Translations under genes and position numbers: made by a program
Shown here: piece after piece, positions 2,501 through 61,144 of the stretch
How positions within the stretch are numbered: position 1 is the stretch's first letter
Layout of the letters: every line of letters begins with the position of its first letter
Notes under the pieces: model-generated
Databases searched by the model: none
What the model saw: only the letters and a program-made list of their open reading frames with translations
Told to the model about the DNA's origin: nothing
NCBI GenBank assembly: GCA_022071975.1
Contig: JAJVIO010000036.1
Span: forward strand, 1,606-65,605
DNA from: Planctomycetota bacterium
GTDB lineage: Bacteria; Planctomycetota; UBA8742; UBA2392
DNA length: 64,000 bases
Direction of reading: 5' to 3'

Positions 2501-3292
2501 CTACATCGGCGCCGGGGTCATCAGGGCCACGACCGCCCCTGTGGGGTCCATGATCTGCATGAAACGTCCTACGTTGGGGATGTCCATCACCGGCACCAGC
2601 AGTTGCGCGCCCAGTTTCTGGGCGGCTTCGGCGGCCTTGTCTACGTTCGGCACGTGGATGTAGCCGACCCAGCAGGAAGGCGCCTCGGCGGGCACCTCGG
2701 CCGGCATCGGCATGCCGCCGCCGGCGTTGGCGCCGCGCACCTGGAACAGCGTGTATTCGCCGCCGGGCATGGGCATCTTCATGGCGCTCCAGCCCAGCAG
2801 GTTGCTGTAGAACTTCGCGGCCTTGGCGAAGTCGCGGCTCATGAGCTCGACCCACAGGAAGCTGCCGGCGTCGGCGCATGGCGGTTCGGCGGCACGCTTT
2901 TCCGGCTGCATCAGGTAGAGGTGCGCGCCGGCGGGGTCCTGGGCCGGGAAGAAACGCCCGATGCCAGGAGCGTCGATGATGTCGTGCAGCGCCTTGCCGC
3001 CCAGCTCACGCACGCGCTGGTGCGCGGAAGCGGCGTCTTCCACGTCGATGTAGTAGGCCCAGTGCGAGGGCAACTCTCCCCACTCGGGGCCACTCATCTG
3101 GGCCATGCCGCCGACCTTTTTGTCGCCGACTTTCAGCAGCGTGTAGATGCCGCCCGGGCCCATGTCCACTTCCTCATAGTTCCAGCCGACAACTTTGGCG
3201 TAGAAGTCTTTGGCCTTCTTCAGGTCGCGGGTCCAGCACTCCCACCACATGAAGCTGCCGGGCCCGAAGGCTGGTTTGGGTTGCTCGCTCAT
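2501..3292 (-). CDS. VOC (glyoxalase/bleomycin-resistance/dioxygenase) family protein, two-domain
   Basis: Start MSEQPKP at 3292 is preceded by a GGAGAG RBS (reverse complement of ctctcc). Two similar halves (FMWWECWTRDLKKAKDFYAKVVGW... and FLWVELMSRDFAKAAKFYSNLLGW...) are typical of VOC proteins. The upstream 160 codons of the listed 423-aa ORF are Arg/Pro-rich shadow sequence. Confidence 0.85.
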   Translation of the reverse strand: MSEQPKPAFGPGSFMWWECWTRDLKKAKDFYAKVVGWNYEEVDMGPGGIYTLLKVGDKKVGGMAQMSGPEWGELPSHWAYYIDVEDAASAHQRVRELGGKALHDIIDAPGIGRFFPAQDPAGAHLYLMQPEKRAAEPPCADAGSFLWVELMSRDFAKAAKFYSNLLGWSAMKMPMPGGEYTLFQVRGANAGGGMPMPAEVPAEAPSCWVGYIHVPNVDKAAEAAQKLGAQLLVPVMDIPNVGRFMQIMDPTGAVVALMTPAPM

Positions 3293-45000: not shown

Positions 45001-48000
45001 CGCGCTACCGCCCACGCTGATTCCGCTTGTGAGTGTGACCTCCACCGACTCGCCGGGCAGCAGATCCGCCGCCGGGTCGAACACCAGCGTGGCACTGCCG
45101 TTGCCGGAGTAACTGCCGGCCAGCTTTCCGCGCAGGCTGCCGCGCGGCACGAATGTGCCTGCGCTGCCGCCGGTGGCCGTGTTCCAGAATTGGGCCTGTA
45201 TGTCCGTGGTTCTCGCGGCGTTTCGCATGTGGGCCGCCGGGCTCTCGACGACATCTATGCGGGTGTAGTGGTTCAGCTGGGAAATCAGGCCGTTGTTGCC
45301 GTTCGCGGTGACGAAGTCGATGTCGCCGTCACCGTCCAGGTCGCCGGCAGCTCCGTTCCAGGTTGCGTAGCTTACCGTATCCAGCTGCAGCTGGGCGCCG
45401 GCCCATGAGAAGTCGCCGCTTCCGTCGTTCAGGTAGATGTAGTTGGCGTAGGTTCCGGCATCGCGTGTGTCGATCACATCGAGGTCGCCGTCGCCGTCGA
45501 AATCGGCGAAGTCCAGCCAACTCGAGAGTCCGGAAGCGCTGCCGAAACTGCCGCCCGAAGCGAAGCTTCCCCAACCGTCGTTCAACCAGAGTTCATCTGT
45601 GGACGCACCGTTGGACGCGACGATGTCGATGTCCCCGTCGCCGTCTGCATCGCCTAACGCGATCTGCTGCGTGTTGCCGCTGCTGCCCCACGTCCCCGAG
45701 ACGGTAAAGTTTCCGGCCCCGTTGTTGAACCACAGCGTGTTCGTTCCGTTGACGGCAAACACCACATCCAGGTCGCCGTCGCCATCAATATCACCCACTT
45801 CGAAGTCCTGACCGAAGCCGGTGTTGATTGCACCTGTGCCCGGGAAGTTTCCACTGCCGTCGTTGAAGTACAACGCCACTCCAGAGGCAACGTTCAGCAG
45901 GATGTCCAGGTCACCGTCAGCATCGAGATCGCCGGTCCTTATGGGCGCGGAACCATATGTGGTGCCAAACTGTGCGCCCGCGGTGAACACTCCCGAGCCG
46001 TTGTTCGAATAAATCACCATCTGCGTACCGACCTGCAGCAACACATCGACGTCGCCATCGAGGTCGAAATCACCGATACAACCTCGCCGCGTGTAGGCAA
46101 ACGTGGCACCGTATGCAACGCCGGTTGTATTCAGGGTGCCGCCGATATTTTCGTACGTCTCAAGTTGGCCGGCTGAGGTGGATGCCAGCAGATCGAGGTC
46201 TCCGTCTCCATCCATGTCCGCCAGCATGGCCAGCGTGCAAGTCGTGCCCACAGAGATGTTCTGGACTGCCTTGCGGAACTCCGCGGGCCCCACGCCGGCG
46301 GCGGCCCGGAAACGCGCAACGGTTGGATTGGACAGCGACTGGCCGCCGGAAGACTGAAGCCCGGCAGTGAAACTCACTTCCAGCTGCTCCCCGGCCAGCA
46401 AGGACGCACCCGGCGTGAACACCAGCGACGAGCTGCCACCGCCGCTGTAAGTACCTGACAACACGCCCCTGCCCGCCGTCTGCACACGCATCGTGGACGT
46501 GCTGGGCGCGTTCATGTTGCGGTCAAACGCGCCTGAAATCGAACTGCTCGTTGGGGCCGTAAATGAGTTGGGCGCCGGTGTGACTCCGACCAGCCGCGGC
46601 AGGTCCTGCACGTTGAAGGAACTGGTGTTGACCGGCGCGCCTGAAATGTCAACGCTGCCGCCCGTATCGTCCGTCAAAACGAGGTGGATTCCCGTCGCCG
46701 GCGGCGCACCCAGCACCACCAGGTTAGCACCCGCAAAAATCGCCACTCCCTGGACTGCCCCGCTGCTTTGGCCCGCCGAGACAGCACCCGCATCGGACCG
46801 CGTGGCAGTCAGCACGTCGCCGTTTACATCCAGGTCGGTGTTCCCCAGGCTGTCCGCGTAGCGTGCCGCAACCGGGAAGCCGCTGCCGATGGCCACTGTG
46901 GCGGGCGGCTGGCTGCTGACCAGCAGGGTTGTGGCATTCACCTCATACTGCAGCGGCGCGGGATTCAACGCGGGCTGTCCTGCCTGGAACTGCGAGCCGC
47001 CGAAAAGCTTGATGTCCGAGGTGGAAAGCGAAAGCTGGAACGCTTCGTTGTCTGCCGTGCCGGCCGGATTCACCGCCAGCTGCACCTGCAGCGTAAAAGT
47101 GAGTGAGCCGCCGTTGGCGATGTTCACGTTCATGTCGAAAGTGATGGTTCGATTACCTGCTGCCCCACCCACCGTTCCGGGGACGCTGCTGTAGCCTTGC
47201 GGAACCAGGCGCCACTGGTGGTCGTCAGCATCGGCGCTGCCCGATGCGTGGAATACGACACGACCGAGCCGTGTTGATTGTCCGGCAGTCGACCCCTGGT
47301 CCTGGAGCTGGAAGTCGAACACTGATGTGTAGGCGGCGCTGCCGGCCACTGAATCGATGGTGGCAGGCTCCGCCAAAGGGCCATTCTGCAGCAGCACCTC
47401 GGGATCGCCGGCGGTATTCAGATGAACGAAACAGTTGTTGCCAGTGGCCTGTCGGGCTAGCACCAGGTCGACGTCGTAGTCGTAGTCAAAGTCGGCCATG
47501 GCAATGGACTTGACGCCATTGGAGGCCGTGCCCGGGATGTCGGCGAAGTAGCTGAACGTGCCGCCGCCGTTGTTCAGGAATACTTGAGCATCGAGGGAAT
47601 TGCTGTACCGGGGCCGGACCATGTCCAGGTCGCCGTCGCCATCGATGTCGCCCAGGCCGACCGAGTAGTCTTCCGTAGTGCCGATGCTCTGGAACAGTGT
47701 GAAGTTGCCGGACCCGTTGTTCTTCCAGACTTGCGTCATGAACGTGCCACTGCCACCGGCCACGACGTAGTCAAGGTCGCCGTCGCCATCGACGTCCGCC
47801 AAGTGGCAATCCGAGCCTGTATTGGCGTTTCCGGTTCCGACAATCGTCGGAAAGGACCCGGTACCGTCGTTGAAGAAAAAGTCCCAGCCGGTTGCGACGT
47901 CCAAGTCGCCGTCATTATCCATGTCGCCGACGTCGAGACCGAACTGGTTCCGTGAGCCGTACACCGTGGGATTGCCGAAGGTGCCCCCGCCCTGGTTGAG

Positions 48001-48825: not shown

Positions 48826-48967
48826 TGTCCCTGCTCCTTTATGTATGGGGCCCGATTGTAGCTCGTGTTTCGCGGTCTTTCGTTCCGTATCTGATTTTTT
48901 ACACGCGTTGTCGCCTCGTCGAACACACACTTCGCGTCGTACTGTCGGAAACGCCTGGAGAAACTGA

Positions 48968-48992
48968 AACAGCCTGTCAAAGACCGGCTGTT
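48968..48992 (-). terminator. Weak hairpin downstream of the A2M gene (possible partial terminator)
   Basis: On the minus strand, AACAGCC-N11-GGCTGTT is followed by TCAGTTTCT. It lies in the 192-nt lower-GC spacer before the giant gene, which also contains TACAAT (48855-48860 as attgta). Confidence 0.3.
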
Positions 48993-49017
48993 CGCTCATC
49001 CGATTAACTTATGAGTC

Positions 49018-52000
49018 CTATTTCACGTCCAGCAGATTGCTGCCGCTGTGGCCGTTGCGGCTTTCGTCGTACATGTCGTAGGCGCGCGCCGGCAGGGCGG
49101 TGAACTTGCCGCCCGCCACCACCACGCAGTCGTAGCGGAAGGTGATGACGCCCCTGGCGTCCAGTTCCGTGGCGTAGAAGTTGGTGGTGGTGTCTCGCTC
49201 CTCCTTGGTCAGCCACAATAACTCACCCTGGGCCTCGATCAGGCCGGGCAGCGGCTCGAAGCGGCTGCTGATCGGCTCGAGGCAGCTGGGACGCGCATCC
49301 TCGATGCAGATGTAGCGATCGCCCGCCTTGCCCGTCACTTGGATGGTGACTGTAAGGACGTCGCCCACGTTCAGCTTATCGCCTGCCTTGAGCGTCGAGT
49401 ACTCGTGCTCCACCCGCGTCTCGGTGTAACGCCGCAGCACAGCACCGCGCTCGTTGCGCACTTCGACTTCGACCTGTTTCTCAACGGACATGCGGCGCCT
49501 GTAGACGCGAGTAACGCTGAGACCGTTTGACTTCTCCCCAACCGGCTCGCTGACAGGTATGAAGGCCCGCACCGTGACGCTTCCGCTGACCGCCGCGTTG
49601 CCGCTGCGGCTCAGCGTAAGCCCGGCCCCCGCCTGACCTTTCAGCAGGTCGCCGCCGATCTCCCAGCGTGTACGGCCGGACAGCAACTTGCCCTTCGTGC
49701 GCTCAAAGGTGCCGACCTGCGCAGCGCCAAGCCTGATGCTGACGCGTGCTTCGCCGGCCTCTTCCTGGTTCGATTGCAGGTAGGCCGCAAGCGCCTGCAC
49801 TGCCTGGCCGGTGGCACGGGTATTGCCCCAGCCGCCGCCCTGCTTGCGCTGCAGCAGGCTGTCCGCGGCGCGCTTGAGCATCGGCTCAGCGGGCGCGACC
49901 GTGGCGATGGCCTGGATCGCCAGAGCGTGCGCCTCGATGGGCGTGTCGTGCCAGCGGCAATCCGGGTTCGAGCCGGAGGGGAACTGCACGCCGCCGCGGC
50001 CGTCGTCCTCAGCCTGCGCCAGCAGCGCCTTCAGCACGAACTGGGCGTCGCGTTCGCGACCTGCGTGGTGCAGCGCAAGCAGCAGTGAAGCCAGGCCTGC
50101 GCTGCCGCCGGCACGCTCGGCGGCCTGGTTGCTGTCGTTGCCAAGGGTGGCCTGCGCGGCCAGCAGTTTCTCTTCCAGCAACTCGCGGGTCCTCTGGTAC
50201 GGGTCCGTGACGTCGCCCTGGGGGCGCGGCAGGCAGCTGATCGCCCAGGCCGCGGCGTGCAGGGCGCGAGCGCGCAGGGCCGGGTCGTCGCCGTTGTTCA
50301 GGCCCAGCAGGAACAGGGCGCCGCGCCGGAACATCTCGTCCATGGCGTCTTCGCTGGCGGGCAGGCTGAGGCCCACGCCGCCCGCGAGCTCACGGGCGCT
50401 GCACAACCCGGCGAGCACCGTGGCGCTGAGGTGCGGGTTGCTGCCGTCGTAGTTGAACCAGCCCCAGCCGCCGTCGCTGTTCTGGTAGCGGCGCAAGTTG
50501 CCGAAGCCGAGGTCCACCATCTTCTGCAGCTCAAGCGGGTTGCTGAGCTGCGCGGGCCAGCTGTCACCCCCAACGGCACCGTCGTAGCTGATGCGGGTCT
50601 TGCCGATTTCGTAGATGTCCAGCTTGTTGGCCTTCAGCAGTTGCAGCACCGAAAGCAGCGGCACGAACTTGTTTGTGGTCTGCTCGGCGCAGCCGTGCGG
50701 GTAGTTCACCAGGCCCGGCAGCGCGTCGATCACCGATGACAGCAGCGAGCCGTTGAACTGCAGGCTCACGCTGCTGCGCTCCAGCAGCGCGCCCCTGGGC
50801 AGCTCGGGCGTGATGCTGATGGTTTCCTTGCCCGGCTCGAATCGGAAGCTGGTGGTCGTGGTGACCGGCATACCGCGCGGATTCACCTCGTACTTCCATA
50901 CCAGGCTGTCCGCGTCGTCGTCGCTGGAGGCGCTGACCTTCAACGCCGCGCGGCCGAAGCCTTCCACTTTCACACGGAAACGCACTTCCTGGCTGCCACC
51001 GGGCGCAATGCTGCAGCTGGCCGGCGAGGGTGAGCTCAGCAGGCTGAGCTTCGCGCTGGGCTGGTTGACGTTCAGTTCGACTTCGCAGCTCACGGAGGCC
51101 GCGCGCTCACCCAGGTTCTGCACCAGGGCGCACAGCTCGATCTCGTCGCCCTCGGTCAGGCCCCGCGGGCCGACCATGCGCAGGCCCAGCTCGCGGGCGA
51201 CGGTGAAACTGCCGCTGGTCTGGCCCACTGCCGCGGCGCGGTCGGTGGCCGTGGCCTCGATGGTCCACTCGGTCAGGTTGTCGGGCAGCTTGAAGCTGAT
51301 CGTGGCGACGCCCTTGTCGTTGGTGCGGATCGACGGATTGAAGTAGGCGCTGTCCTGGAAGTCAGCACGTTCCGGTGGCGCGCTACCAGGTGCTCCGCCG
51401 CCGCCTCGTGCGCGCCGGTGAGCAAAGCCGCCCCTGCCGCCTCCTCCGGCGCCGCCCCCCAAACCCACCGACGAGTTTGGCCCGTAATAGGGCGACGGTG
51501 ACTCGTTGTCCGAGTCATTCGGCCACTCGTTGGCCTCCATCGAATCGCGGGCATCCTCCATGATCCTCAGGTCTTCATACAGTTCACCGGGATTCTCGAG
51601 CATCGCCAGCAGGCTGACCTGACGGGTGCTGGTCCAGCTTCTCGCGCCGTAGAAGAAGCTGCCCGGCGGCATGTCATTGATCTTCCAGCGCTTCACCTTC
51701 GCGTCGCTGCGGCGCGTGGGTTTCACCTTCGTGCGCGCGCCGAGGTTCACGTCCGAGGCAACGAAGCGGCTGGTGCCGGCGAAGAAGTGGTCATACAGGA
51801 TCGTGCGCTGCAGGGCGCTCTCGGCGAACTCCTTGAGCGCACTGTCAAACACGGACAGCGCAACCTCGGCGGGAACCGGCTTGCCCAGATGGCCGAAGGT
51901 GAAGATGTCCACGCTGGCCTGTTCGCCCGGCTTGTAGCGCTCTTTGTCGAAGCGCACCATGGTGTGGATCAGCTTCGTAACCGGGCGCACCTTCACGCCG

Positions 52001-55000
52001 TATCTGTCAGCGAGGAAGTCGCCGCCGCGCACCGCGCGCGCGCTGAGCTGCACATGTGGCGCGTTGCTCTCAGCCAGCGCCAGCTCATGGATGCCGGTGC
52101 CGGGCGCGCCTCGCAGCAGGCGGTGGTCGCTTTCGCGTCCGTCGGCATGCAGGCTGAGCAGCACGTCGCCGGCGCGCGGCTGGGTCAGCAGCACGCGGGC
52201 TGGGCCGGTCAGATCGTAGCTGTCGAACTCAGGCAGCACGGCGAACGGCGCGCGGTCGAAGTCGCCGCGGCCGATCATCAGTACGCTGTGTGTCAGCTCG
52301 AAGTACTCGTCCCCCGCTTCGCCTTCGATCTCGATGTAGTAACGGCCGGTTTCTCGCGGCATCTGCAGCAGCACGGAATCAAGCTGGCCGTGATCGTAGA
52401 AAGGCCGGTCATACAGGCGCTTGATGCTGGGATTGTTCCAGTCACCCGGTCGCAGCGAGGACTGGTCGGTGATGCGCCACACCGTGTAGCGCCCGCCTGC
52501 ATTCAGCCGACGGCCGGATGAGTCCAACACGCGCAGGCCCATGTTCACCTGGCTGCCGCTGAGCCAGTTTGCCTGCGACCATTCCACCTTCACGCTGATG
52601 CCGCTGCCGCTGAGTCGCGCGGTCGCCTGGGCGTGCACGGTCTGGCCGCCGGGGCCGGTGCCCTCCGCATTGATAGTCAGTGTAACCGCGCGGCCGTCGG
52701 CTTCGGCACTGATGCGCTGAGTATCCAGCGCGATCAGCAGTCGGCCTTCCAGGTTGGTGCGGCCGCTGCCCGCCGCGGGTTGCCAGCTCTTGCCGTCGGC
52801 CGAGCGCGCGTTGACGGTGTAGCGCACCTCGCCGCCCTGAACCGCGCCGCCCGCGAGGTACTTGAACAGCAATGGGATCTCGGCGTTGCTGCCGGGGATC
52901 AGCGCTTCCTTGGGCGCTTCGATTTCGAGGCGAATGTCCTTCTTAAAGTACTCGAGCACTTTGAGCTGAAAACTGGTGTCGCCGCCGATGCGCGGGCTGC
53001 TGACCAGCACATCGTAAGCGCCTAGCGGCGCGCCGAAGGGCACGTCGAACTGCGCGGTGGCACAGCCGAATTCATTCAGCACCACTTCAAAGCGGGCTTG
53101 CTCAATGCCGTCGTACAGCACGCGCAGCAGGGCGCGCTCGCCCTCAAGGCTGCCTTCTCCCATGGGCAGGCGCGTGATCAGGCGCAGCCAGGCCTTGTCG
53201 CCGGGGCGGTACACCGGGCGGTCGCTGTAGACGAAGGCGCGCAGGTCACGCACGGGCTCGGGCATCGGCTGGGGCAGCCAGGACGCCGGGGCCTCTATTC
53301 GTTTGGGGTCGTTTGCGTCGTTGACCAGGTACAGCACGCCGCCGACGTCCACGGTGGCCCAGAAGTTGCTGACCTGGTGGGGCGGCAGCTGCGTCTCGAA
53401 CAGGCCGTTGGCATTCGTGGCGCCCTTTACGTCATGCTGCACGAGCTGGCGCTCTTCGCGGAAGCGGGTGACCTGCTGCGTGCCTTTGGTCAGGTCGCGC
53501 TCGTCAACGGGCACGGTTTCCCGATAGGGCACGGAGACATACAGGTTTTCGTGGTAGCCGCCCCGGACAACGGCGTCGGCGATTGGCCGGCCGTCGCGTG
53601 TGGTAACCCAGAACTGCTCGGTCTCTGCCAGCCTGCGCCGCTGCACTGCCAGGTCGGCGATTTGTACCAGTTTACGCTCAAGAACCGGGCCGCCGGAAAC
53701 CTCCAGCAGGAACACGCCGGGCGTGCTGGTGTAGAGCGGCAGACCGTCGCGCCAGTGATAGAAATGCTTGCTGTCCGGGTTCAGCTTGAAGGACTGGTCC
53801 ATCACGCTGAGGCCCAGTGCCTGCTCGAAGCCGGGCAGCTTCTGGATTTCGGCCAGGTCGGCGTAGACGTGCCCGGCGTTGCCCGCCTTGGCCAGAACGC
53901 GCGCAAGATCAACCGGCCGCAAGCTGACGCGCACGCTGTCAACGTTTCGGGCGTACACGCTGATGGTCAGCACCTGGCCCGGAGCAACCAAAGCGTTCTC
54001 GGAGCCACCGGTGCTGAAACTGGTGAAGAGCTGCGGGAACTCAATCACCTGCACGAGCCTGCGGGCCTCACCAATGTAACGCGACTTGGGGTGGTCCTTC
54101 TCGAGCTGGTCGAACTCGCCGCGCGCGGCATCGAAATCATTCAGGTAGTAGGCAATGTAGCCCAGCAGGAAGCGGGCCTCGTCGTCCCAGATGCTGCCCG
54201 CATGCTCCTTCAGCAGTTTGCTCAGCAGCGGGCGCGGGTCGCGGGTGATGTCGGGCTCCGCTTTGGTCGGGTTGCGCCAGTCGGTCAGGCGCGCGTTCAG
54301 CGCGGCGTTGCCGTACAAGCCGACGTTTATCATCAGCACCGCGCGCCGGTACAGGATGGTGGCCTGCAAGGCCTTGTCTTTCAGGTCTTCAGCGCGGCGG
54401 CTCGCCGTCTCAATCAGCGCGTTGATCGTCGGCAGGCTGGGATAGTCGGGCTGCAGGTAGTAGCCGCGGCGGGTGAACGGCTCTTCCGCGGGCTGAGCCG
54501 CGACAGGGAAAGCCGGCTCTGGTTCCGCCTGCGGCTCTTCTTCAGGTGATTCCTCGACAGGCGATTCCGGCCGCCGCTGCTCGGCGATGCCTCCCACGCC
54601 GTAATCACTGCCGAAGAAATGCATCGCGTTGGTCGTGCGACCCTGCAGGCGGTCGTTCACCTCAAGCAGATCGCAATACTCGAGGGTGATCGCCACGTGG
54701 CGCTCGAGTTGCGGCTTCGCGCCGGGCTGCAGTTCCAGCAGCGTGCGGCTGGCTTCATGAGCTTCGTACAGCAGGCCACGCGCCAGCAAAAGGTCACGCG
54801 ACAGCGTGCTTACTTCGCGCCACCGCCACACTTCTTCTTCTTTCAGCAGCTCAGGGCGCAAAACGTAGTCGCGCGTTTTGCCGTCGGGCCCGACATGGTA
54901 GTCGTGGTCGCGCGAGGCGAAGTAGAGGCCCGCCATGCGAAAGGCGTCCACGCGCTTGCCGAGCTCCGAGATCCGCTGGATGAACCCGGTCATCCCGGCC

Positions 55001-55281
55001 GACATGCCGTCCAGCTGCTCGTGACTCCCGGCCTCGGCCAGGCACACCAGCGCGCGCGTGACTGCGCGGTCGCGGTCTTGGCCCTGTGGCAGCGCCTGTG
55101 CGGCCTTCAGGTAGTCGTCGGCAGCCGCGCCTGGTTGCCTGGCGTCAAAGGCTGCGTCGGCGCGGGCCAGGGCGGCTTGCGCTTCTTTCAGACGTTCCTG
55201 GGCCTGGTAGGTGTGGGAGATGAGGATGGAGATAGCGGCGAGAGAAACAAGCACCGCCACGGCGAGGAATGTCCGTTTCAT
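49018..55281 (-). CDS. Alpha-2-macroglobulin family protein (2087 aa) with intact thioester motif and N-terminal TPR-like extension
   Basis: Thioester site YPHGCAEQTTNKF (CAEQ at 50680-50691). It has long MG-domain-like beta regions, an alpha/alpha-toroid TED-like region (NSDGGWGWFNYDG..., QRKQGGGWGNTRATGQA), and an N-terminal signal anchor MKRTFLAVAVLVSLAAISILI with no lipobox Cys. Confidence 0.9.
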   Translation of the reverse strand: MKRTFLAVAVLVSLAAISILISHTYQAQERLKEAQAALARADAAFDARQPGAAADDYLKAAQALPQGQDRDRAVTRALVCLAEAGSHEQLDGMSAGMTGFIQRISELGKRVDAFRMAGLYFASRDHDYHVGPDGKTRDYVLRPELLKEEEVWRWREVSTLSRDLLLARGLLYEAHEASRTLLELQPGAKPQLERHVAITLEYCDLLEVNDRLQGRTTNAMHFFGSDYGVGGIAEQRRPESPVEESPEEEPQAEPEPAFPVAAQPAEEPFTRRGYYLQPDYPSLPTINALIETASRRAEDLKDKALQATILYRRAVLMINVGLYGNAALNARLTDWRNPTKAEPDITRDPRPLLSKLLKEHAGSIWDDEARFLLGYIAYYLNDFDAARGEFDQLEKDHPKSRYIGEARRLVQVIEFPQLFTSFSTGGSENALVAPGQVLTISVYARNVDSVRVSLRPVDLARVLAKAGNAGHVYADLAEIQKLPGFEQALGLSVMDQSFKLNPDSKHFYHWRDGLPLYTSTPGVFLLEVSGGPVLERKLVQIADLAVQRRRLAETEQFWVTTRDGRPIADAVVRGGYHENLYVSVPYRETVPVDERDLTKGTQQVTRFREERQLVQHDVKGATNANGLFETQLPPHQVSNFWATVDVGGVLYLVNDANDPKRIEAPASWLPQPMPEPVRDLRAFVYSDRPVYRPGDKAWLRLITRLPMGEGSLEGERALLRVLYDGIEQARFEVVLNEFGCATAQFDVPFGAPLGAYDVLVSSPRIGGDTSFQLKVLEYFKKDIRLEIEAPKEALIPGSNAEIPLLFKYLAGGAVQGGEVRYTVNARSADGKSWQPAAGSGRTNLEGRLLIALDTQRISAEADGRAVTLTINAEGTGPGGQTVHAQATARLSGSGISVKVEWSQANWLSGSQVNMGLRVLDSSGRRLNAGGRYTVWRITDQSSLRPGDWNNPSIKRLYDRPFYDHGQLDSVLLQMPRETGRYYIEIEGEAGDEYFELTHSVLMIGRGDFDRAPFAVLPEFDSYDLTGPARVLLTQPRAGDVLLSLHADGRESDHRLLRGAPGTGIHELALAESNAPHVQLSARAVRGGDFLADRYGVKVRPVTKLIHTMVRFDKERYKPGEQASVDIFTFGHLGKPVPAEVALSVFDSALKEFAESALQRTILYDHFFAGTSRFVASDVNLGARTKVKPTRRSDAKVKRWKINDMPPGSFFYGARSWTSTRQVSLLAMLENPGELYEDLRIMEDARDSMEANEWPNDSDNESPSPYYGPNSSVGLGGGAGGGGRGGFAHRRARGGGGAPGSAPPERADFQDSAYFNPSIRTNDKGVATISFKLPDNLTEWTIEATATDRAAAVGQTSGSFTVARELGLRMVGPRGLTEGDEIELCALVQNLGERAASVSCEVELNVNQPSAKLSLLSSPSPASCSIAPGGSQEVRFRVKVEGFGRAALKVSASSDDDADSLVWKYEVNPRGMPVTTTTSFRFEPGKETISITPELPRGALLERSSVSLQFNGSLLSSVIDALPGLVNYPHGCAEQTTNKFVPLLSVLQLLKANKLDIYEIGKTRISYDGAVGGDSWPAQLSNPLELQKMVDLGFGNLRRYQNSDGGWGWFNYDGSNPHLSATVLAGLCSARELAGGVGLSLPASEDAMDEMFRRGALFLLGLNNGDDPALRARALHAAAWAISCLPRPQGDVTDPYQRTRELLEEKLLAAQATLGNDSNQAAERAGGSAGLASLLLALHHAGRERDAQFVLKALLAQAEDDGRGGVQFPSGSNPDCRWHDTPIEAHALAIQAIATVAPAEPMLKRAADSLLQRKQGGGWGNTRATGQAVQALAAYLQSNQEEAGEARVSIRLGAAQVGTFERTKGKLLSGRTRWEIGGDLLKGQAGAGLTLSRSGNAAVSGSVTVRAFIPVSEPVGEKSNGLSVTRVYRRRMSVEKQVEVEVRNERGAVLRRYTETRVEHEYSTLKAGDKLNVGDVLTVTIQVTGKAGDRYICIEDARPSCLEPISSRFEPLPGLIEAQGELLWLTKEERDTTTNFYATELDARGVITFRYDCVVVAGGKFTALPARAYDMYDESRNGHSGSNLLDVK

Positions 55282-55387: not shown

Positions 55388-56380
55388 TTACTTGGCCGAC
55401 CGCGACTTCAGGAACAGTTCCGCGATTTCGAACGCGGTGATGAGGATGGAAACGCTGGTGCCCACCTGAGTGTGATAACCCGAAGTGCTGGTGGTGTATT
55501 GGCGGATCACGATTACCTGCACGCCCTCTTTGCGCTGCTGCTCGAGGATTACACCGTTTGGCAGCTTGGGTTTTCGCCCCAGCACATCCAGCAGCTTGAG
55601 CTCATCGCGCGCAACGATGCAGGCGTAGAAATACGGGTAGCCGGCGCCCTGCACACGGTTGACTACCACCTGTCCCTGCACGCCGAAGAAGCCGGGCGGA
55701 GAGTCCTTGAACTCCACCAGCAGCTTGAAGTCTTCGGGTATCTGCTGCTCGCCCTCGCCCTTGAGCAGCATCTGCGCCAGGAATTCGCCGCGCTTGAACG
55801 TCGCGGCGGGAAGCGCCCGTAGCAGCTTGTCCACGTGCTCGGCTTTCAGCACCAGGTCCGGCTTGCGGTGGATCGAACGCATGCCGTTGAACCAGTTCAG
55901 GCCCAGCAGTGCCAGGCCGTCCATGGCCACGATGCCCGCTACCGGGGGCGAGAACTCCAGCAACAGGATGGTGCCGCCACCCAGGATTACCGCCATCGCC
56001 GCAAGAGTAACGCAGCCCATTACGCTGCTGGCGTCGAGAATGCTTTCGTCCCATTTCTTCATACGCCGATCCTGGTCCAGGATCTGGCGGATGCGGTCAA
56101 GCTCGGTGCGCTTCCATTCCCCGGCGTGGTGATAGCTGCGGAAGTCCAACCGGTTGTCGTAACCGCGAATCCAGCCCAGCAGCACGGCTGGAACCAGCAG
56201 TGGAAAACCCGCCCAGGCGCTGAGGAACAGTATCTGCAACACCAGCGCGAGCAGCACCAGACCCGCGACCAGCGCGAGCCGCGGCCTGTAGGCCAGCTTG
56301 GGCAGCAGCAGGAACTTGATCACCGGCTCCGCGCTTTCGGCGCGGATCAGTTGTGTTCCCTTCACTGCGGTGGTGGTCAT
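55388..56380 (-). CDS. Hypothetical polytopic membrane protein (third gene of the rSAM cassette)
   Basis: ATG 56380 overlaps the rSAM stop (ATGA). Four hydrophobic helices are followed by a C-terminal soluble domain of about 170 aa. No family recognised. Confidence 0.65.
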   Translation of the reverse strand: MTTTAVKGTQLIRAESAEPVIKFLLLPKLAYRPRLALVAGLVLLALVLQILFLSAWAGFPLLVPAVLLGWIRGYDNRLDFRSYHHAGEWKRTELDRIRQILDQDRRMKKWDESILDASSVMGCVTLAAMAVILGGGTILLLEFSPPVAGIVAMDGLALLGLNWFNGMRSIHRKPDLVLKAEHVDKLLRALPAATFKRGEFLAQMLLKGEGEQQIPEDFKLLVEFKDSPPGFFGVQGQVVVNRVQGAGYPYFYACIVARDELKLLDVLGRKPKLPNGVILEQQRKEGVQVIVIRQYTTSTSGYHTQVGTSVSILITAFEIAELFLKSRSAK

Positions 56381-57750
56381 TTCTGCTTGCCCTTGTTTGC
56401 CTGCTCGATTTCGTCAAAGCCGATCACCCGCCAGTACAGCGGGCAGGCGCCGTGGCAGACCTGGAAGTGCTCACAGCCCTTGCAGATGTCGTGGGCCAGG
56501 AACTTCTTGCGGAAGTTCTGCGCCTTCTCTGAATTCCATACCTGGTCGAAGCTGCCCTCGATGATGTCCCCCACCGGGTCGTCGTAGCTGGCACAGGGGA
56601 TCACCTGGCCGTCCGCACCGACCGAAACCAGCCCGTCGCAGGCCGAGCAACCCTTGTTGCCCAAGCCGTGCAGAATGGGATTGAAGATGCACATGGGCGT
56701 GGGCGAGTACCACTTGAACTCGACACCGTGCCGCTTTGCGCCTTCCAGGATCTGCTCCAGCACGGGGCCCAGCTCGGTGTACTTCACCACCAGTTCTTCG
56801 TTCAGGTTGGCGCTTCCGGTGGGGATCACCAGGTTCATGCTGAAGGTCTGGTTGCCTAGCGTATTCGCCACGAACTCGGGGAACTTCACCACGTCGTGCA
56901 GGTTGGTCTTGGTGATGGTGGTGTTGGTGTTCACGCGCACGCCGGCGGCCTTGTAGTTGGCCACGCCCTCCACGGCGCGCTTGAAGTGGCCGGGAATGCG
57001 GGTGATGCCCTCATGCACCTCGGCCGTCGTCCCCTCGATGCTGATCTGCACCGAGTGCAGGCCGGCGTCGGCCAGCTTCTTCACGAACTCGGGCGTGCTG
57101 CGCAGGCCGTTGCTGATCAGGTTCACGCGCATGCCCAGGGAGCGCGCGTAGGCGATCATCTCGGGCAACTCGGGGCGGAGGGTCGCCTCACCGCCCGTGA
57201 AGCTGACGCTTGGCACCTTGGCCTCATGCTTGATCTTGTGCAGCACCTGCTTCACTTCATCCAGCGTCATCTCGCGGTCGTTGCCGACCGGGTTCACCGT
57301 GCAGTTGCAGCCCGCATAACAGAAGGTGCAGGTCGCGTTGCAGCGGTAGGTGATCGCCACTTCGCTCAGCACCGGGTAGGGCGAGAAATCCATCGTGAAC
57401 GGGATCTTGTCCACAGCCGGCGATTCGTAGGTGTCGTTCAGGCCTTCCTTCAGCATGGTGCGCAGGTCCAGCAGGAAGCGCTCGGTGTCTCGCCACACGG
57501 CCGGGTTGTCGCCCCAGGGAGCGAGGATCTGCTCGATGCTTTCGCCTTCGCGCAGGCGCTTGATCAGGCGGATGCCCTCGGGGTTCAGCTTGAAGGCCTT
57601 GTTGGGGCGCTGGATGAAGACGTTGTCTTCTTCGCGCACCTCGATGTAGTCGTGGACGTTGCGCATCCACTCACGCACCCAGCTCAGGTCCACGACCGGC
57701 TGCTGCACCACGGCCTGCTTGCGGCCGAACAGCATCTCCAGGAACGCCAT
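56377..57750 (-). CDS. Radical SAM/SPASM-domain peptide/protein maturase with N-terminal PqqD-like RRE
   Basis: The start MAFLEML at 57750 overlaps the upstream stop (TGATG), with a GGAGGA RBS inside the upstream gene. CX3CX2C motif CNATCTFC at 57319-57342. The C-terminus is Cys-rich and SPASM-like (GNKGCSACDGLVSVGADGQVIPC...CKGCEHFQVCHGACP). The N-terminal region reads NKAFKLNPEGIRLIKRLREGESIEQIL. Confidence 0.9.
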   Translation of the reverse strand: MAFLEMLFGRKQAVVQQPVVDLSWVREWMRNVHDYIEVREEDNVFIQRPNKAFKLNPEGIRLIKRLREGESIEQILAPWGDNPAVWRDTERFLLDLRTMLKEGLNDTYESPAVDKIPFTMDFSPYPVLSEVAITYRCNATCTFCYAGCNCTVNPVGNDREMTLDEVKQVLHKIKHEAKVPSVSFTGGEATLRPELPEMIAYARSLGMRVNLISNGLRSTPEFVKKLADAGLHSVQISIEGTTAEVHEGITRIPGHFKRAVEGVANYKAAGVRVNTNTTITKTNLHDVVKFPEFVANTLGNQTFSMNLVIPTGSANLNEELVVKYTELGPVLEQILEGAKRHGVEFKWYSPTPMCIFNPILHGLGNKGCSACDGLVSVGADGQVIPCASYDDPVGDIIEGSFDQVWNSEKAQNFRKKFLAHDICKGCEHFQVCHGACPLYWRVIGFDEIEQANKGKQK

Positions 57751-59396
57751 CAGAATGATCCTCCGCTGTGGCAGGCCGAATGGCACGCCGAGTGACAGGC
57801 AGAATGGCACGCGCTGTGGCAAGCTGAATGGCAGGCGCTGTGGCATGCGCTGTGACAGGCCGAGTGGCAGACGTCGATGGCACCCGGGTCGGTCAGAAAA
57901 TCCTGGTAGGTGATGTGGTCTACCTTCACATCAATGGAGCGCTCGAAGCGGTCTGGCAGCAGTGTGCGGTCATAGTCGCGGTAGTGGTGGTGCCAGAAAT
58001 ACCAGTGGTGCCAGCCGAAGTGGCGCCGGTTGAAAGGTTTGGCCTGGTCCTGCTCAGGTGTCTCGTGACCCTTCCTGGTCTGCTCCTGCCAAACCTGGTT
58101 GATCTGCGCCTGCCAGTACTTCTTGGTGGCTTCAATGTCGCAATCCCAGGCCTTCTTCTGGACGTTCTTCACCACCAGGTCCAGCAGGTACTCCAGCTCG
58201 GCCTCCGAGAACTTGCCATCGTCGCGGGCCGCCTTGATCATCTCGTACTCGTACTCTTCAAGGCCGGCGACTTCTTCCTTGCTGCGTTGCAGCACCTTCA
58301 CCTTGAGGGGATCAGCCTTCAGCACCTCGAGGAAGCCGGCTGCGGACAGGCGCTGCAGCATCACGCTCAGGATGCGCTTGTAAGGCAGCTCCAGGAAGAA
58401 CGCGACCTCGACCGGCGTCAGCGTCTCACACACTTTGCCGGGTTTCCGGAAGGTGGAGAGCTTGATCTTGGGCGGCACCCACTCTACCGCTTCCCAGGCC
58501 ACGTCATCCAGCGAATCGCGCGCCCTGCGGGTTTCACGGTGCTTGTAGTAGGTGATGCCCGCAAACAGCAGCAACAGCACGACCACGATCCCGATCAGCA
58601 GCAGCCGTGCGGAGCCATCTTCAAGGTAGTTGGGGCCGTAATCATAGGGGCTGCTGCCCGGGCCGCCTCCCACGGGCGGACGGCTGGGGTCGTACGCGCC
58701 GAACGTGGCGTCGAACAACGCGGCGTCAACGTATTGCTGAACCAGCATCTTGCCGAAGGCCGGCATGCGATCCTTATGCAGCAGCACTTCGAAGCGGCCG
58801 TTCTGGTTGCGATAGTCGATCCGGTATTGCTCGTTCATCCACTTCTCGGTGCGGAAGTGGACCGAGTCCAGGAACGCCGGCGAACGCGGGTCACCGGAAA
58901 CCTCGACCGGGTAGCGCACGTACACGGTGTAGTGCTCAAGGGCGTGGTCCCATTCGCTGGGCGCCCAGTGGAAAACCACCAGCTTGCGCCCTTCCGGGTC
59001 GGTGGTCTGGGCCAGATGGCCCGTGTGGCCGAAGTCTGTGGCGAACCGGAACTTGAAGATCGCCGAACCGCTGCTGATGCCGGCCCCGTTGGCGAACTGG
59101 ATGGTCTTCTTGCCCGAATTGAAACCGCGCTCGATTGGCATGGTTCGGCCGTTATCGAGCGTCGCCAGGCCCCATGCGTCGTCCCACACCGGGTCCAGGT
59201 CGTCGATCTGCGGGCCGGTGAAGTAGAAACCGTGAAACTCGCCGCTGTCGTGCTGGTACTTCACGGCGTACTCGACACCGGCCTTGCCGTCTTTCTGCAG
59301 ATTAACTGTGACTTCGCACCACACGGGATGGCCGGAGCCCGCCCACAGGGCGCAGGGGGCCATCAGCAGGATCAACAGCAGGATGCGCACGTGCAT
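57750..59396 (-). CDS. DUF2207-like single-pass membrane protein with His/Trp-rich patch and C-terminal (Cys-His-Ser-Ala)8-Cys-His-Ser repeat
   Basis: The order is signal peptide MHVRILLLILLMAPCALWA, an ectodomain, then TM helix LLLIGIVVVLLLLFAGITYY followed by KHRETRRAR. A DUF2207-like segment LTPVEVAFFLELPYKRILSVMLQRLSAAGFLEV comes next, then HFGWHHWYFWHHHY. The protein ends VCHSACHSACHSACHSACHSACHSACHSACHSACHSGGSF. Confidence 0.8.
   Translation of the reverse strand: MHVRILLLILLMAPCALWAGSGHPVWCEVTVNLQKDGKAGVEYAVKYQHDSGEFHGFYFTGPQIDDLDPVWDDAWGLATLDNGRTMPIERGFNSGKKTIQFANGAGISSGSAIFKFRFATDFGHTGHLAQTTDPEGRKLVVFHWAPSEWDHALEHYTVYVRYPVEVSGDPRSPAFLDSVHFRTEKWMNEQYRIDYRNQNGRFEVLLHKDRMPAFGKMLVQQYVDAALFDATFGAYDPSRPPVGGGPGSSPYDYGPNYLEDGSARLLLIGIVVVLLLLFAGITYYKHRETRRARDSLDDVAWEAVEWVPPKIKLSTFRKPGKVCETLTPVEVAFFLELPYKRILSVMLQRLSAAGFLEVLKADPLKVKVLQRSKEEVAGLEEYEYEMIKAARDDGKFSEAELEYLLDLVVKNVQKKAWDCDIEATKKYWQAQINQVWQEQTRKGHETPEQDQAKPFNRRHFGWHHWYFWHHHYRDYDRTLLPDRFERSIDVKVDHITYQDFLTDPGAIDVCHSACHSACHSACHSACHSACHSACHSACHSACHSGGSF
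57765..57869 (-). repeat. Coding 12-nt-period tandem repeat: nine Cys-His-Ser units (eight with a following Ala)
   Basis: Translated codon by codon, Cys codons fall at 57771, 57783, 57795, 57807, 57819, 57831, 57843, 57855 and 57867. The repeat units differ at synonymous positions. Confidence 0.95.
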
Positions 59397-59533: not shown

Positions 59534-61144
59534 ATGCGTTACGGTTTCGTGATCGACAACCGCGTGTGCATCGGCTGCCACGCCTGCACGGTGGCCTGCA
59601 AGGCCGAGCACCTGGTGCCCATCGGCGTCAACCGCACCTGGGTCAAGTACATCGAGCGCGGGGAATACCCCAACGTGGCCCGCAACTTCCAGGTCACGCG
59701 CTGCAACCACTGCGTGGACGCGCCCTGCGTCACGATCTGCCCCACCAGCGCGCTGTTTTCACGCGAAGACGGCATCGTCGATTTCGACAACCGGCGCTGT
59801 ATCGGCTGCAAGTCGTGCACCCAGGCCTGCCCCTACGACGCCCTGTACATCGACCCCAACACCCACACGGCCGCCAAGTGCAACTTCTGCGCCCACCGCA
59901 TCGACCAGGGCCTGAACCCCAGCTGCGTGAACATCTGCCCCGAGCAGGCCATCCACTTCGGCGACCTGGACGACCCCAAGAGCGACGTCGCCAATCTCGT
60001 CAGCCGCGAACACGTCGGGCAGCGCAAGCCCGAAAAGGGCACCATGCCCAGCGTGTTCTACATCGACGGCGACAGTGCAGCCCTAAACCCTGCCGCGACC
60101 CAGATGCCCGAGTCCACCATGTGGTCGGAACAGAACCGCGGAGTGGGCCACAACGTGGGCAAGAGCGGCGAGGCGACCGACCTTCTCGGCATCGTGCGCC
60201 GCGCCCAGGCCACCCGCGCCGAGCGCAGCGACGCCCCCGAGCCCGTGCTCGACGGCCTGCTTCGCGACCTCGAGAAGGCCACAGGCGCCAGCAAAGTGCG
60301 CCGGGCATACGACCAGCCGGACAAGGGCATCCAGTGGGGCTGGGAAGTGCCGGCCTATGTGGTGACCAAGGCTTTGTCGGCGGGGCTGGCCTTGGTCAGC
60401 GCGCTGGCGTTCATTCTGCCGAGCCTGGGCCTGCAGTCGGCCGCATTCAACACGGGTGGCAACCTGTTCCAGGTGGTGCTGCCGATTGTCTCTATGGTGT
60501 TCCTGGTGATCACCGGCGGCCTGCTGGTGAAGGACCTCGACCAGCCCCTGCGCTTCGTGTACGTGCTGCTGCGCCCCCACTGGACCAGCTGGCTGGTGCG
60601 CGGCGGTTATATCATCACCTTCACCGGCGGCCTGACGGCACTGTGGACGGCCAACGGTTTGTTCTTCCACTCGCCCCAGGTGTTCAAGCTGCTGGCCTGG
60701 CCCCTGGCGCTGCTGTCGCTGGCCTGCGCGGGCTACACCGGCTTCCTGTTCGGCCAGTGCAAGGGCCGCGATTTCTGGCAGAGCCCCGCCCTGCCGCTGC
60801 ACATGATGAACCATGCGCCCCTGTCCGGCTTCGCCGTGCTGGCGCTGATCGGGCGCGACGTGCGCTGGGCGCTGTTCGCCTTCACCTTGATCAACCTGGC
60901 GGTGATCGCCTTCGAGATCTGGGGCAAGCACCCCAACGAGGACAGCGCCGCCACCGCCCACGACATGCAAAAAGGACGCGCCGGCCGGATGTTCTGGTTC
61001 GGCGTAATCGGCATCGGCGGTGTGCTGCCGCTGCTGCTGTTGCTGGTGAAGGCCCCGTTCTCGGCAGCGCTGGCCGTGCTGCTGGGCCTGGCCATCACCG
61101 AGTACCTTTGGGTGATCATGCCGCAGAAGAGGCCGAACACGTAA
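59534..61144 (+). CDS. Fused 4x[4Fe-4S] ferredoxin subunit (NrfC/DmsB/PsrB-like) and NrfD/PsrC-like 8-TM quinol-interacting membrane subunit
   Basis: Four Cys clusters: CIGCHACTVAC, CNHCVDAPCVTICP, CIGCKSCTQACP and CNFC...CVNICP. The C-terminal half has eight hydrophobic helices beginning WGWEVPAYVVTKALSAG. No twin-arginine signal is present. Confidence 0.85.
   Translation: MRYGFVIDNRVCIGCHACTVACKAEHLVPIGVNRTWVKYIERGEYPNVARNFQVTRCNHCVDAPCVTICPTSALFSREDGIVDFDNRRCIGCKSCTQACPYDALYIDPNTHTAAKCNFCAHRIDQGLNPSCVNICPEQAIHFGDLDDPKSDVANLVSREHVGQRKPEKGTMPSVFYIDGDSAALNPAATQMPESTMWSEQNRGVGHNVGKSGEATDLLGIVRRAQATRAERSDAPEPVLDGLLRDLEKATGASKVRRAYDQPDKGIQWGWEVPAYVVTKALSAGLALVSALAFILPSLGLQSAAFNTGGNLFQVVLPIVSMVFLVITGGLLVKDLDQPLRFVYVLLRPHWTSWLVRGGYIITFTGGLTALWTANGLFFHSPQVFKLLAWPLALLSLACAGYTGFLFGQCKGRDFWQSPALPLHMMNHAPLSGFAVLALIGRDVRWALFAFTLINLAVIAFEIWGKHPNEDSAATAHDMQKGRAGRMFWFGVIGIGGVLPLLLLLVKAPFSAALAVLLGLAITEYLWVIMPQKRPNT

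Follow-up and report, generated by a model that had tools for sequence, protein, structure and literature searches.

Here, we have analysed a window of 64,000 nucleotides (nt) from a Planctomycetota bacterium (GenBank assembly GCA_022071975.1, contig JAJVIO010000036.1, positions 1,606 to 65,605 of the forward strand), in which the gene for a membrane protein of 548 amino acids (aa) ends in a strictly periodic array, (CHSA)x8+CHS, whose DNA units are scrambled by synonymous codon changes. The explanation that accounts best for our results, with a probability of roughly 0.7, is that the array is a functional and conserved C-terminal tail, that its codons have diverged by drift together with a weak avoidance of identical neighbours, and that it is the probable substrate of a radical S-adenosylmethionine (radical-SAM)/SPASM enzyme encoded by the next gene of a three-gene cassette. 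Sequence comparisons strongly support that the array is old, real and constrained at the level of the peptide.

Read codon by codon on the minus strand, units 1-3 of the array are TGC CAC TCG GCC, TGT CAC AGC GCA and TGC CAC AGC GCC, units 4-6 are TGC CAT TCA GCT, TGC CAC AGC GCG and TGC CAT TCT GCC, and units 7-9 are TGT CAC TCG GCG, TGC CAT TCG GCC and TGC CAC AGC, after which the protein ends with GGSF and the stop codon. The serine codons run TCG, AGC, AGC, TCA, AGC, TCT, TCG, TCG, AGC, and all four alanine codons are present. A preliminary description of this DNA had given the same codons, the same order of serine codons and a strict C-H-S-A period, all of which proved exact, and its observation that no two adjacent units are identical extends to every pair of the eight full units. 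Its remark that the histidine and cysteine codons alternate is correct in that both codons are used, but the alternation is not strict (six CAC and three CAT; seven TGC and two TGT), and its view that third positions are almost all G or C is an overstatement, the G+C content at third codon positions (GC3) being 0.83 in the tail gene and 0.72-0.92 in the frames taken as the real genes of the window, which has a GC content of 64.7%. Since the identity between units averages 0.70, close to the floor of 0.50-0.67 imposed by the peptide, the units are nearly as different as the peptide permits; Tandem Repeats Finder, which picks up the array with a period of 12, gives no more than 70-75% matches. 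A perfect four-residue period over 35 residues cannot be the product of chance.

The closest relative of the window locus, in the Planctomycetota metagenome-assembled genome (MAG) GCA_027493625.1 (locus L001, ∼90% nucleotide identity), has the same nine units. The two arrays differ at 9 of 35 third positions and at none of the 70 first and second positions, while the rest of the tail gene differs at 17.7% of third positions and 2.6% of first and second positions. Complete nine-unit arrays are found at five loci (L001, L010, L012, L013 and L030) whose proteins share 55-96% identity with the window protein over the parts that exclude the array; the peptide (CHSA)8CHS is identical in all five, and the pairwise codon differences within the window clade amount to 9-25 of 35, all of them synonymous. 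By our own arithmetic, the chance that 35 residues remain unchanged while 26-45% are changed elsewhere is about 3e-5 to 1e-9 per comparison. Another locus, L028, has 10 units. Moreover, four independent assemblies from four sequencing runs of near-identical strains contain nine units each, with 1-3 synonymous differences in the array. How a real expansion looks is seen in locus L043 (Dehalococcoidia; array stop at 6573), which has nine units against the seven of its relative L040, and in which four consecutive identical units (TGC CAC TCG GCC) form a perfect in-register repeat of 45 nt. This is a recent two-unit expansion that has not yet diverged, and it looks unlike the window array; because it is visible, our tests of codon diversity and of neighbouring units have power. 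The assembly of L001 also has single-base gaps at ∼10998 and ∼16021 (window ∼58399 and ∼53384), which break the tail gene (342 + 203 aa) and an alpha-2-macroglobulin-like gene; these gaps are probably MAG assembly errors, and the array is untouched.

A word-index protein search gave 12 relatives of the tail protein, an exhaustive profile search gave 734 cluster representatives at E ≤ 1e-3 (152 of them at ≤ 1e-30), and among species-representative genomes a scan detected them in 151 species, from which 80 loci were fetched. The resulting 83 distinct arrays span at least 10 phyla. Their hosts belong to Planctomycetota, Aminicenantes/Acidobacteria, Clostridia, WOR-3, Elusimicrobia, Gemmatimonadota, Opitutales, Dehalococcoidia, Calditrichaceae, Nitrospiraceae and other groups, the clostridial members including Herbivorax sp. 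ANBcel31, reported to be an isolate. A terminal C-H-x-A array is present at all loci whose C-terminus is complete, and is followed by CVSGG[AS][HR] or near variants (CVSSGH, CVSGGH, CVSGSSH); the terminus of the window clade is CHSGGSF. Over 642 units, position 1 is cysteine and position 2 histidine in all 642, counts that are partly circular in that a C[HY]xx pattern was used to set the limits of the arrays. Position 3 is serine in 513 units (∼80%), aspartate in 97, alanine in 14, glycine in 11, asparagine in 6 and glutamine in 1, and position 4 is alanine in 634 (98.8%) and glycine in 8. The deviations seen sit at the edges of arrays: CYVHTA in WOR-3, CRSA in protein P0098 and WHSA in locus L009. 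The last of these, at 2640..2697 (protein P0002), is a variant tail, CHSACHSAWHSARP followed by a stop codon, with TGG (Trp) in place of the expected cysteine; this could reflect decay of the copy or an error in sequencing, and the overlapping radical-SAM start is not visible in the 77 nt left before the contig ends. The arrays have 7 units in 39 cases, 8 in 14, 9 in 26 and 10 in one, plus a few that are short or truncated.

Taken with the orthologues, the invariant cysteine and histidine and the almost invariant alanine bear out the earlier view of an old array under purifying selection on the peptide, and the four assemblies and the appearance of L043 agree with its being neither a recent expansion nor an assembly artefact. 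A tail fixed at all four positions, as the preliminary description envisaged, is found for cysteine, histidine and alanine and, within clades, for the number of units (7, 8 or 9), but not for the third position, where 20% of the residues are Asp, Ala, Gly, Asn or Gln. This least constrained position qualifies a further point, namely that a switch between AGC and TCN serine codons needs two nucleotide changes. Because Asp, Asn, Gly and Ala are tolerated there, single-step paths exist, and the switch would be possible through tolerated intermediates, e.g. GAC-AAC-AGC or TCC-GCC-GGC-AGC, or by copying of a whole unit, without a double hit. Both codon boxes (AGY and TCN) are mixed in 27 of the 83 arrays, 53 use TCN only and three use AGY only. 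Copying between units inside the array is suggested by units 4-5, as six of the nine differences between the window and L001 fall within these eight consecutive codons (P ∼0.02), unit 4 of the window matches unit 6 of L001 at 11 of 12 nucleotides, and, of the six sites at which the outgroup L010 matches one or the other sequence, five agree with L001. The last serine codon is AGY in all six complete window-clade tails of nine or more units, and is followed by GGA or GGG and then GGN.

For the window array itself, how far the codon diversity departs from chance depends on the background. When all confident genes of the window serve as background, the 9 of 35 codons ending in A or T compare with 5.3-6.9 expected (P 0.07-0.24), the unit identity of 0.70 with 0.76-0.78 (P 0.004-0.017), and the longest in-register exact repeat of 11 nt with 18-21 nt (P 0.02-0.08). 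The three cassette genes alone, which are more biased in codon usage, give 4.1 A/T-ending codons expected against the 9 observed (z +2.6) and a codon homozygosity of 0.56 expected against 0.40 (z -2.0). The diversity is thus at, or somewhat beyond, that of independent codon draws, and a single array cannot decide whether it exceeds chance. Neighbouring codons are identical in 8 of 29 cases against 11.4 expected (P 0.064), which has the same direction as in the family and is not significant alone.

The family as a whole is more informative. The codon homozygosity of 67 arrays is what would be expected from the codon usage of each cassette (mean z -0.04, Stouffer -0.3). A first null based on all long open reading frames (ORFs) at each locus had given a slight homogeneity (mean z +0.40), but is less trusted because spurious ORFs flatten the background; the re-run used the three bona fide cassette genes. 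Since overall homozygosity matches the neutral expectation, saturating synonymous drift accounts for most of the scrambling. Two signals that do not depend on composition point beyond drift. When codons were permuted among same-residue positions inside each array, identical codons at a distance of one unit were found at a frequency of 0.420 against 0.472 expected (z -6.3), with a deficit for serine (-3.4), cysteine (-3.4), histidine (-3.4) and alanine (-2.2), and codon sharing at distances of 2-6 units was at or slightly above expectation. Pooled over 81 arrays, 888 identical neighbours were seen against 996.5 expected, and 78% of the arrays lie below expectation (sign test 5e-7). The deficit is kept when similar arrays are merged into 74 clusters (Stouffer -5.5) or 48 clusters (p 0.002), and each of the four GC3 bins shows it. 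Perfect direct repeats at offset 12 reach a shorter maximum length than in permuted arrays (11.0 versus 12.3 nt, p 7e-4), while at offsets 24 and 36 they reach a longer one, probably as relics of multi-unit duplications. We considered a 24-nt (two-unit) super-repeat as the cause of the neighbour effect and rejected it, as it should raise identity at distances 4 and 6 and lower it at 3 and 5, and neither is observed. Third-position bias is also flatter in the arrays than in the cassette genes that flank them, at either extreme of GC content: the regression of observed on expected A/T-ending fraction has a slope of 0.75 ± 0.05, the arrays being richer in G/C-ending codons in AT-rich genomes (Stouffer -4.1) and in A/T-ending codons in GC-rich genomes (+2.6). 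Enrichment in A/T-ending codons is not a general property of the arrays, as its sign flips with genome GC. We infer that avoidance of slippage causes the neighbour effect. Selection against slippage-prone repeats, which had been put forward as a possibility, thus obtains modest support from the neighbour deficit and the flattened bias of the family, but not from the window alone or from total diversity, which is neutral.

The gene order is as strict as the peptide. At all 78 loci with room for it, the radical-SAM gene directly follows the tail gene, and the third gene comes next in 68 of 68. The tail gene, whose stop codon shares one base with the radical-SAM start, is translationally coupled to the enzyme gene and the third gene. 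GGAGG occurs within the last 24 nt of 50 of the 82 tails, and the terminal Ser-Gly-Gly is mostly encoded by AGY-GGR-GGN (window 57756..57767 (-)). Because these codons contain the ribosome-binding site of the radical-SAM gene, the terminal Ser-Gly-Gly is dual-coded, for peptide and for ribosome binding. The conserved cassette contains no protease, exporter or transporter gene. The positions of these elements in the window are given in Table 1.

Table 1. Array, cassette genes and associated elements in the 64,000-nt window
Feature	Position	Strand	Evidence
548-aa tail-bearing membrane protein gene	57750..59396	-	Homologues; AlphaFold2 model; GC3 0.83
N-terminal extracytoplasmic beta-sandwich, residues ∼20-230, DUF2207-like	58707..59339	-	AlphaFold2, predicted local distance difference test (pLDDT) >90
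Transmembrane (TM) helix LLLIGIVVVLLLLFAGITYY, then KHRETRRAR	58509..58616	-	AlphaFold2 model; sequence read
(CHSA)x8+CHS array, residues 510-544	57765..57869	-	Codon-by-codon read; Tandem Repeats Finder, period 12
GGAGGA (codons Gly545-Gly546), Shine-Dalgarno sequence of the radical-SAM gene, inside the tail	57759..57764	-	Sequence read
TGATG, tail-gene stop overlapping the radical-SAM ATG by one base	57748..57752	-	MAFLEMLF starts at 57750
Radical-SAM/SPASM enzyme gene, 457 aa	56377..57750	-	Pfam Radical_SAM (PF04055) 5e-28; SPASM (PF13186) 6.5e-11
CNATCTFC, CX3CX2C cluster motif	57319..57342	-	Three Cys invariant in 34 family members
Third cassette gene, 330 aa, four predicted TM helices and a cytoplasmic alpha/beta domain	55388..56380	-	Start overlaps the radical-SAM stop (ATGA)

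By its domain matches the neighbouring enzyme belongs to the radical-SAM/SPASM superfamily, and seven cysteines invariant in the C-terminal region of its alignment give the full SPASM pattern for two auxiliary clusters. Profile comparison with the PDB returned SkfB (2e-32), PqqE, SuiB, anSME (5e-17), CteB and the cyclopropylglycine synthase 8VPO, the alignment to the last beginning at residue 58 of the enzyme, so that its nearest solved relatives are peptide or protein maturases. Neither the window enzyme nor its Herbivorax orthologue reached the cut-off of any NCBIfam maturase family scored (AhbD, NirJ, PqqE, HxsC4, WgkB, GeoRSP, ACGX, SkfB, PapB, CefB and others), the best being 152 bits against 500 for AhbD. 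The enzyme has a conserved extra domain of ∼120 aa at its N-terminus. Matches to PqqD (PF05402) are sub-threshold (E 0.19 for the window enzyme; 3 of 34 members at ≤0.1, best 2.7e-4), and the N-terminal profile aligns across the whole of the lasso-peptide RiPP (ribosomally synthesized peptide with post-translational modifications) recognition element (RRE) TfuB1 (6jx3_B) at a weak E of 0.079; the domain may be a peptide-recognition (RRE/PqqD-like) domain. Selenocysteine was considered for apparent in-frame stops in two radical-SAM orthologues and rejected: that in L046 is a matter of start-codon choice, and the in-frame TAG of L038 is probably an assembly error or the mark of a pseudogene. The third protein has invariant NRVQG, YPYFY and TTxTSGYHT motifs. 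It has no match in Pfam or NCBIfam, and its confident AlphaFold2 model (pLDDT 76) has no significant match in the PDB (best E 0.067). MCG3183737.1, which comes from a Planctomycetes MAG, has the same sequence as the window copy; in public records the cassette proteins bear no other names than 'hypothetical protein' or 'radical SAM/SPASM domain-containing protein'.

The carrier of the tail is a membrane protein of ∼500-600 aa in all clades, and so differs from a short leader-core RiPP precursor. From the N-terminus it consists of a signal peptide, a beta-sandwich domain, one TM helix, a cytoplasmic region, an aromatic stretch, the array and GGSF. Foldseek relates the beta-sandwich, at E ∼1e-6, to the N-domains of M1 aminopeptidases and to that of ribophorin I; the window protein scores 19.5 bits for DUF2207 (PF09972) against a gathering threshold of 24.4, and its homologues P0005 and P0009 carry precomputed PF09972 matches. 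NCBIfam and Pfam gave no family above cut-off for the tail protein. The basic stretch after the TM helix, through the positive-inside rule, would place the C-terminal half, including the array, in the cytoplasm. The region after the TM helix is helical and winged-helix-like, with conserved FRKPGK and KAWDCD motifs and then a Trp/His/Tyr-rich stretch; it has a weak match to TIGR04222 (18.1 bits, cut-off 43), and AlphaFold2 models the array as a helix at low confidence. The array is free of stop codons in other frames, which gives rise to spurious ORFs at 57659..57913 (+), 57671..57883 (-) and 56377..57846 (-), the last being a 489-aa 'extended' reading of the radical-SAM gene; off-frame readings of arrays are found in databases as Pro/Ala/Thr/Arg-rich tails (proteins P0048, P0058 and P0114).

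We argue that the array would be a C-terminal tail without which a conserved, membrane-anchored protein could not function, and that the radical-SAM/SPASM enzyme translated right after it would modify it. Selection would fix the cysteine and the histidine of each unit, the alanine almost always, and the clade-constant number of units. The serine position and the synonymous sites would be free, so that third codon positions drift to saturation and take on the scrambled look. Neighbours with identical codons would slip more easily and, with a changed number of units being selected against, such configurations would come to be under-represented; now and then units or blocks would still be duplicated, or one unit copied onto another, and such changes would then decay. 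Cysteine and/or histidine, together with the near-invariant alanine, could be chemical participants or recognition elements, and, with neither a protease nor an exporter in the cassette, the modified product would remain membrane-anchored. That the enzyme modifies the tail of the protein of the preceding gene, once per CHxA unit, is probable from the gene linkage and the enzyme's relatives. The most economical guess for the chemistry is one modification per unit on cysteine and/or histidine, for instance a thioether or a C-C cross-link. Precedents are the cysteine thioethers of sactipeptides and ranthipeptides and the histidine-centred C-C cross-links of three-residue cyclophanes. More tentatively, and at slightly less than even odds, the (C-H-x-A)7-10 tail could define an undescribed class of radical-SAM-modified proteins, in which a membrane-anchored cytoplasmic ladder of Cys and His carries one novel enzyme-installed modification per unit, works with the dedicated 330-aa membrane partner in a three-gene system, and occurs in ∼150 species from ten or more phyla, most of them uncultivated or anaerobic; its DNA would also bear a measurable imprint of selection against slippage between neighbouring units, the number of units being fixed by function.

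Several points weigh against this explanation. The neighbour deficit is lost when the arrays are over-merged into 20 clusters (p 0.25), so that shared ancestry is a possible cause; most arrays come from short-read metagenome bins, and assemblers may under-recover long perfect repeats, a bias in the same direction; in the window alone, the neighbour effect and the over-dispersion are non-significant or depend on the background; the RRE-like similarity of the enzyme's N-domain is sub-threshold only; and a ladder of cysteine and histidine could simply bind metal. All but the last two would be at home in pure neutral drift, in which the synonymous sites are saturated and the neighbour deficit is an artefact of ancestry or of assembly, and the neutral homozygosity, which even turns positive with locus-wide backgrounds, fits as well. 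We regard pure drift as unlikely, since the deficit appears independently in four residue classes and four GC3 bins, is specific to distance 1 and survives the collapse to 74 and 48 clusters; moreover, the flattening of the bias shows at the AT-rich as well as the GC-rich extreme, and the failure of assemblers at long repeats predicts no effect on single codons. A codon pattern imposed by an overlapping signal, be it an alternative frame, an upstream radical-SAM start or an mRNA structure for coupling, could draw on the stop-free ORFs that cross the array, including the 489-aa one, and on the last three tail codons doubling as a ribosome-binding site. It is very improbable, as the MAFLEML start is conserved and both tblastn alignments and called genes begin there, the off-frame peptides are not conserved and occur in databases only as frameshifted gene calls, and the third positions of the array differ freely among orthologues; folding of the RNA of the array region likewise gave no extra stability over shuffled sequences (z +0.94). 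There is next to no chance that the array expanded recently in the manner of a microsatellite, or is a low-complexity stretch put together wrongly in assembly, for which the 12-nt period speaks and nothing beyond: units that are only ∼70% identical, the presence of nine units in each of four independent assemblies from near-identical strains, in L001 and in four orthologues that are more distant and have different codons, and the runs of identical units that mark the true expansion in L043 together refute it.

The other substantial rival concerns function rather than codons. The tail could be an unmodified ladder that binds metal or iron-sulfur clusters through its cysteines and histidines, with the enzyme acting elsewhere and the membrane protein serving as scaffold or partner. 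The invariant residues are indeed Cys and His, a four-residue period in the low-confidence helix of the model would place the cysteines on one face, and the cassette is without protease or exporter. The weak TIGR04222 match of the cytoplasmic part points the same way, and membrane proteins of the DUF2207/TIGR04222 type often have Gly/Cys-rich tails without a radical-SAM partner. Set against these are the linkage of tail and enzyme in 78 of 78 loci, the overlapping stop and start and the ribosome-binding site inside the tail, the conserved extra N-domain of the enzyme with its weak RRE-like similarity, and the action of the enzyme's nearest solved relatives on peptides or proteins; the near-invariant alanine is also hard to account for by metal binding alone. 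A passive ladder is therefore a minority possibility, and a tail modified by the neighbouring enzyme is the reading that we prefer.

Other genes near the cassette in the window do not belong to it. A gene for a 2087-aa alpha-2-macroglobulin-like protein (MG2, A2M, TED and bMG10 domains) lies at 49018..55281 (-), 106 nt downstream of the cassette; it was rejected as a cassette member, as it accompanies the cassette only in the window, in L001/L011 and in the near-identical strains L090-L099. Beyond it, a 6328-aa ORF (30013..48999 (-)) has ∼46 FG-GAP/VCBS-like repeats plus Big_5 and PKD domains, and was likewise rejected; synteny of the window with L001 ends at ∼49004, and the gene is absent at the matching position there. 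Divergent from the cassette, at 59534..61144 (+) and onward, is a gene for a 4Fe-4S/NrfD-type membrane oxidoreductase subunit; the syntenic locus of L001 has a molybdopterin oxidoreductase gene beside the NrfD-type gene, and both are conserved in L001 and L090-L092.

The codon scrambling is in itself ordinary, being what purifying selection plus time would be expected to give, and the interest of the system rests mostly on the uncharacterised cassette and on the family-level slippage signal, less on the codon pattern of the window alone. A strict three-gene cassette whose presumed substrate sits on a full-size membrane protein is a lead for genome mining of radical-SAM chemistry on Cys/His motifs. 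The 81 largely independent copies of one peptide repeat constitute a natural experiment, in which a small but reproducible avoidance of identical neighbour codons is seen. The neighbour deficit gives direct, if modest, comparative support to the view that slippage risk shapes synonymous sites where copy number matters. The cassette is absent from Pfam, NCBIfam and the literature that we searched; the logic of a repeated motif is itself known. Our literature searches found the repeat strings nowhere, nothing on DUF2207 with radical SAM, and nothing relevant for ACGX, CXXX or cysteine at every fifth residue. The one paper on DUF2207 and thiohistidine deals with an unrelated gene neighbourhood and was set aside.

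Among known systems, the carrier resembles DUF2207 proteins in its signal peptide, extracytoplasmic beta-sandwich, membrane span and low-complexity C-terminal tail, and differs from them in that the window protein stays below the family threshold. The modification of whole proteins by SPASM enzymes has a precedent in QhpD, which forms Cys-Asp/Glu thioethers in QhpC. Likewise, anSME (PDB 4K36-39), which converts a sulfatase Cys/Ser to formylglycine, is a SPASM enzyme that acts on a Cys-containing motif in a large or folded protein. Both act on one or a few sites and not on a 7-10-fold array, and the likeness is at the level of the superfamily only.

The closest parallel to the tail itself is TIGR04117, the Cys-Xaa-Xaa-Xaa repeat radical-SAM target, which also has cysteine at every fourth residue beside a radical-SAM/SPASM gene. 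It is the sole curated family to touch the tail, scoring 20.5 bits for that of the window and 19.2 for that of Herbivorax against a cut-off of 50. Its members are short, lineage-restricted ('paralog' type) peptides, whereas here a C-H-x-A tail with invariant histidine and near-invariant alanine sits on a membrane protein of ∼550 aa; moreover, the partner enzyme here is below the curated cut-offs. A repeat-motif precursor matured by a radical-SAM/SPASM enzyme is known from the TVGG/TIGSVS cyclopropylglycine system (PDB 8VPO; PMC10878394). This system, the Cys-every-fifth system CefA/CefB (NF038107), ACGX (TIGR04340) and the His-Xaa-Ser system Hxs (NF038332) share with the present cassette a tandem motif of which each copy is presumably modified once by the adjacent SPASM enzyme, and the present enzyme has a generic similarity to those of all four. 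They differ from it in their enzymes, for which the present one scores 60-150 bits against cut-offs of 265-850, and in their substrates, which are small leader-core peptides, while the presumed substrate here is a full-size membrane protein encoded without a protease or an exporter.

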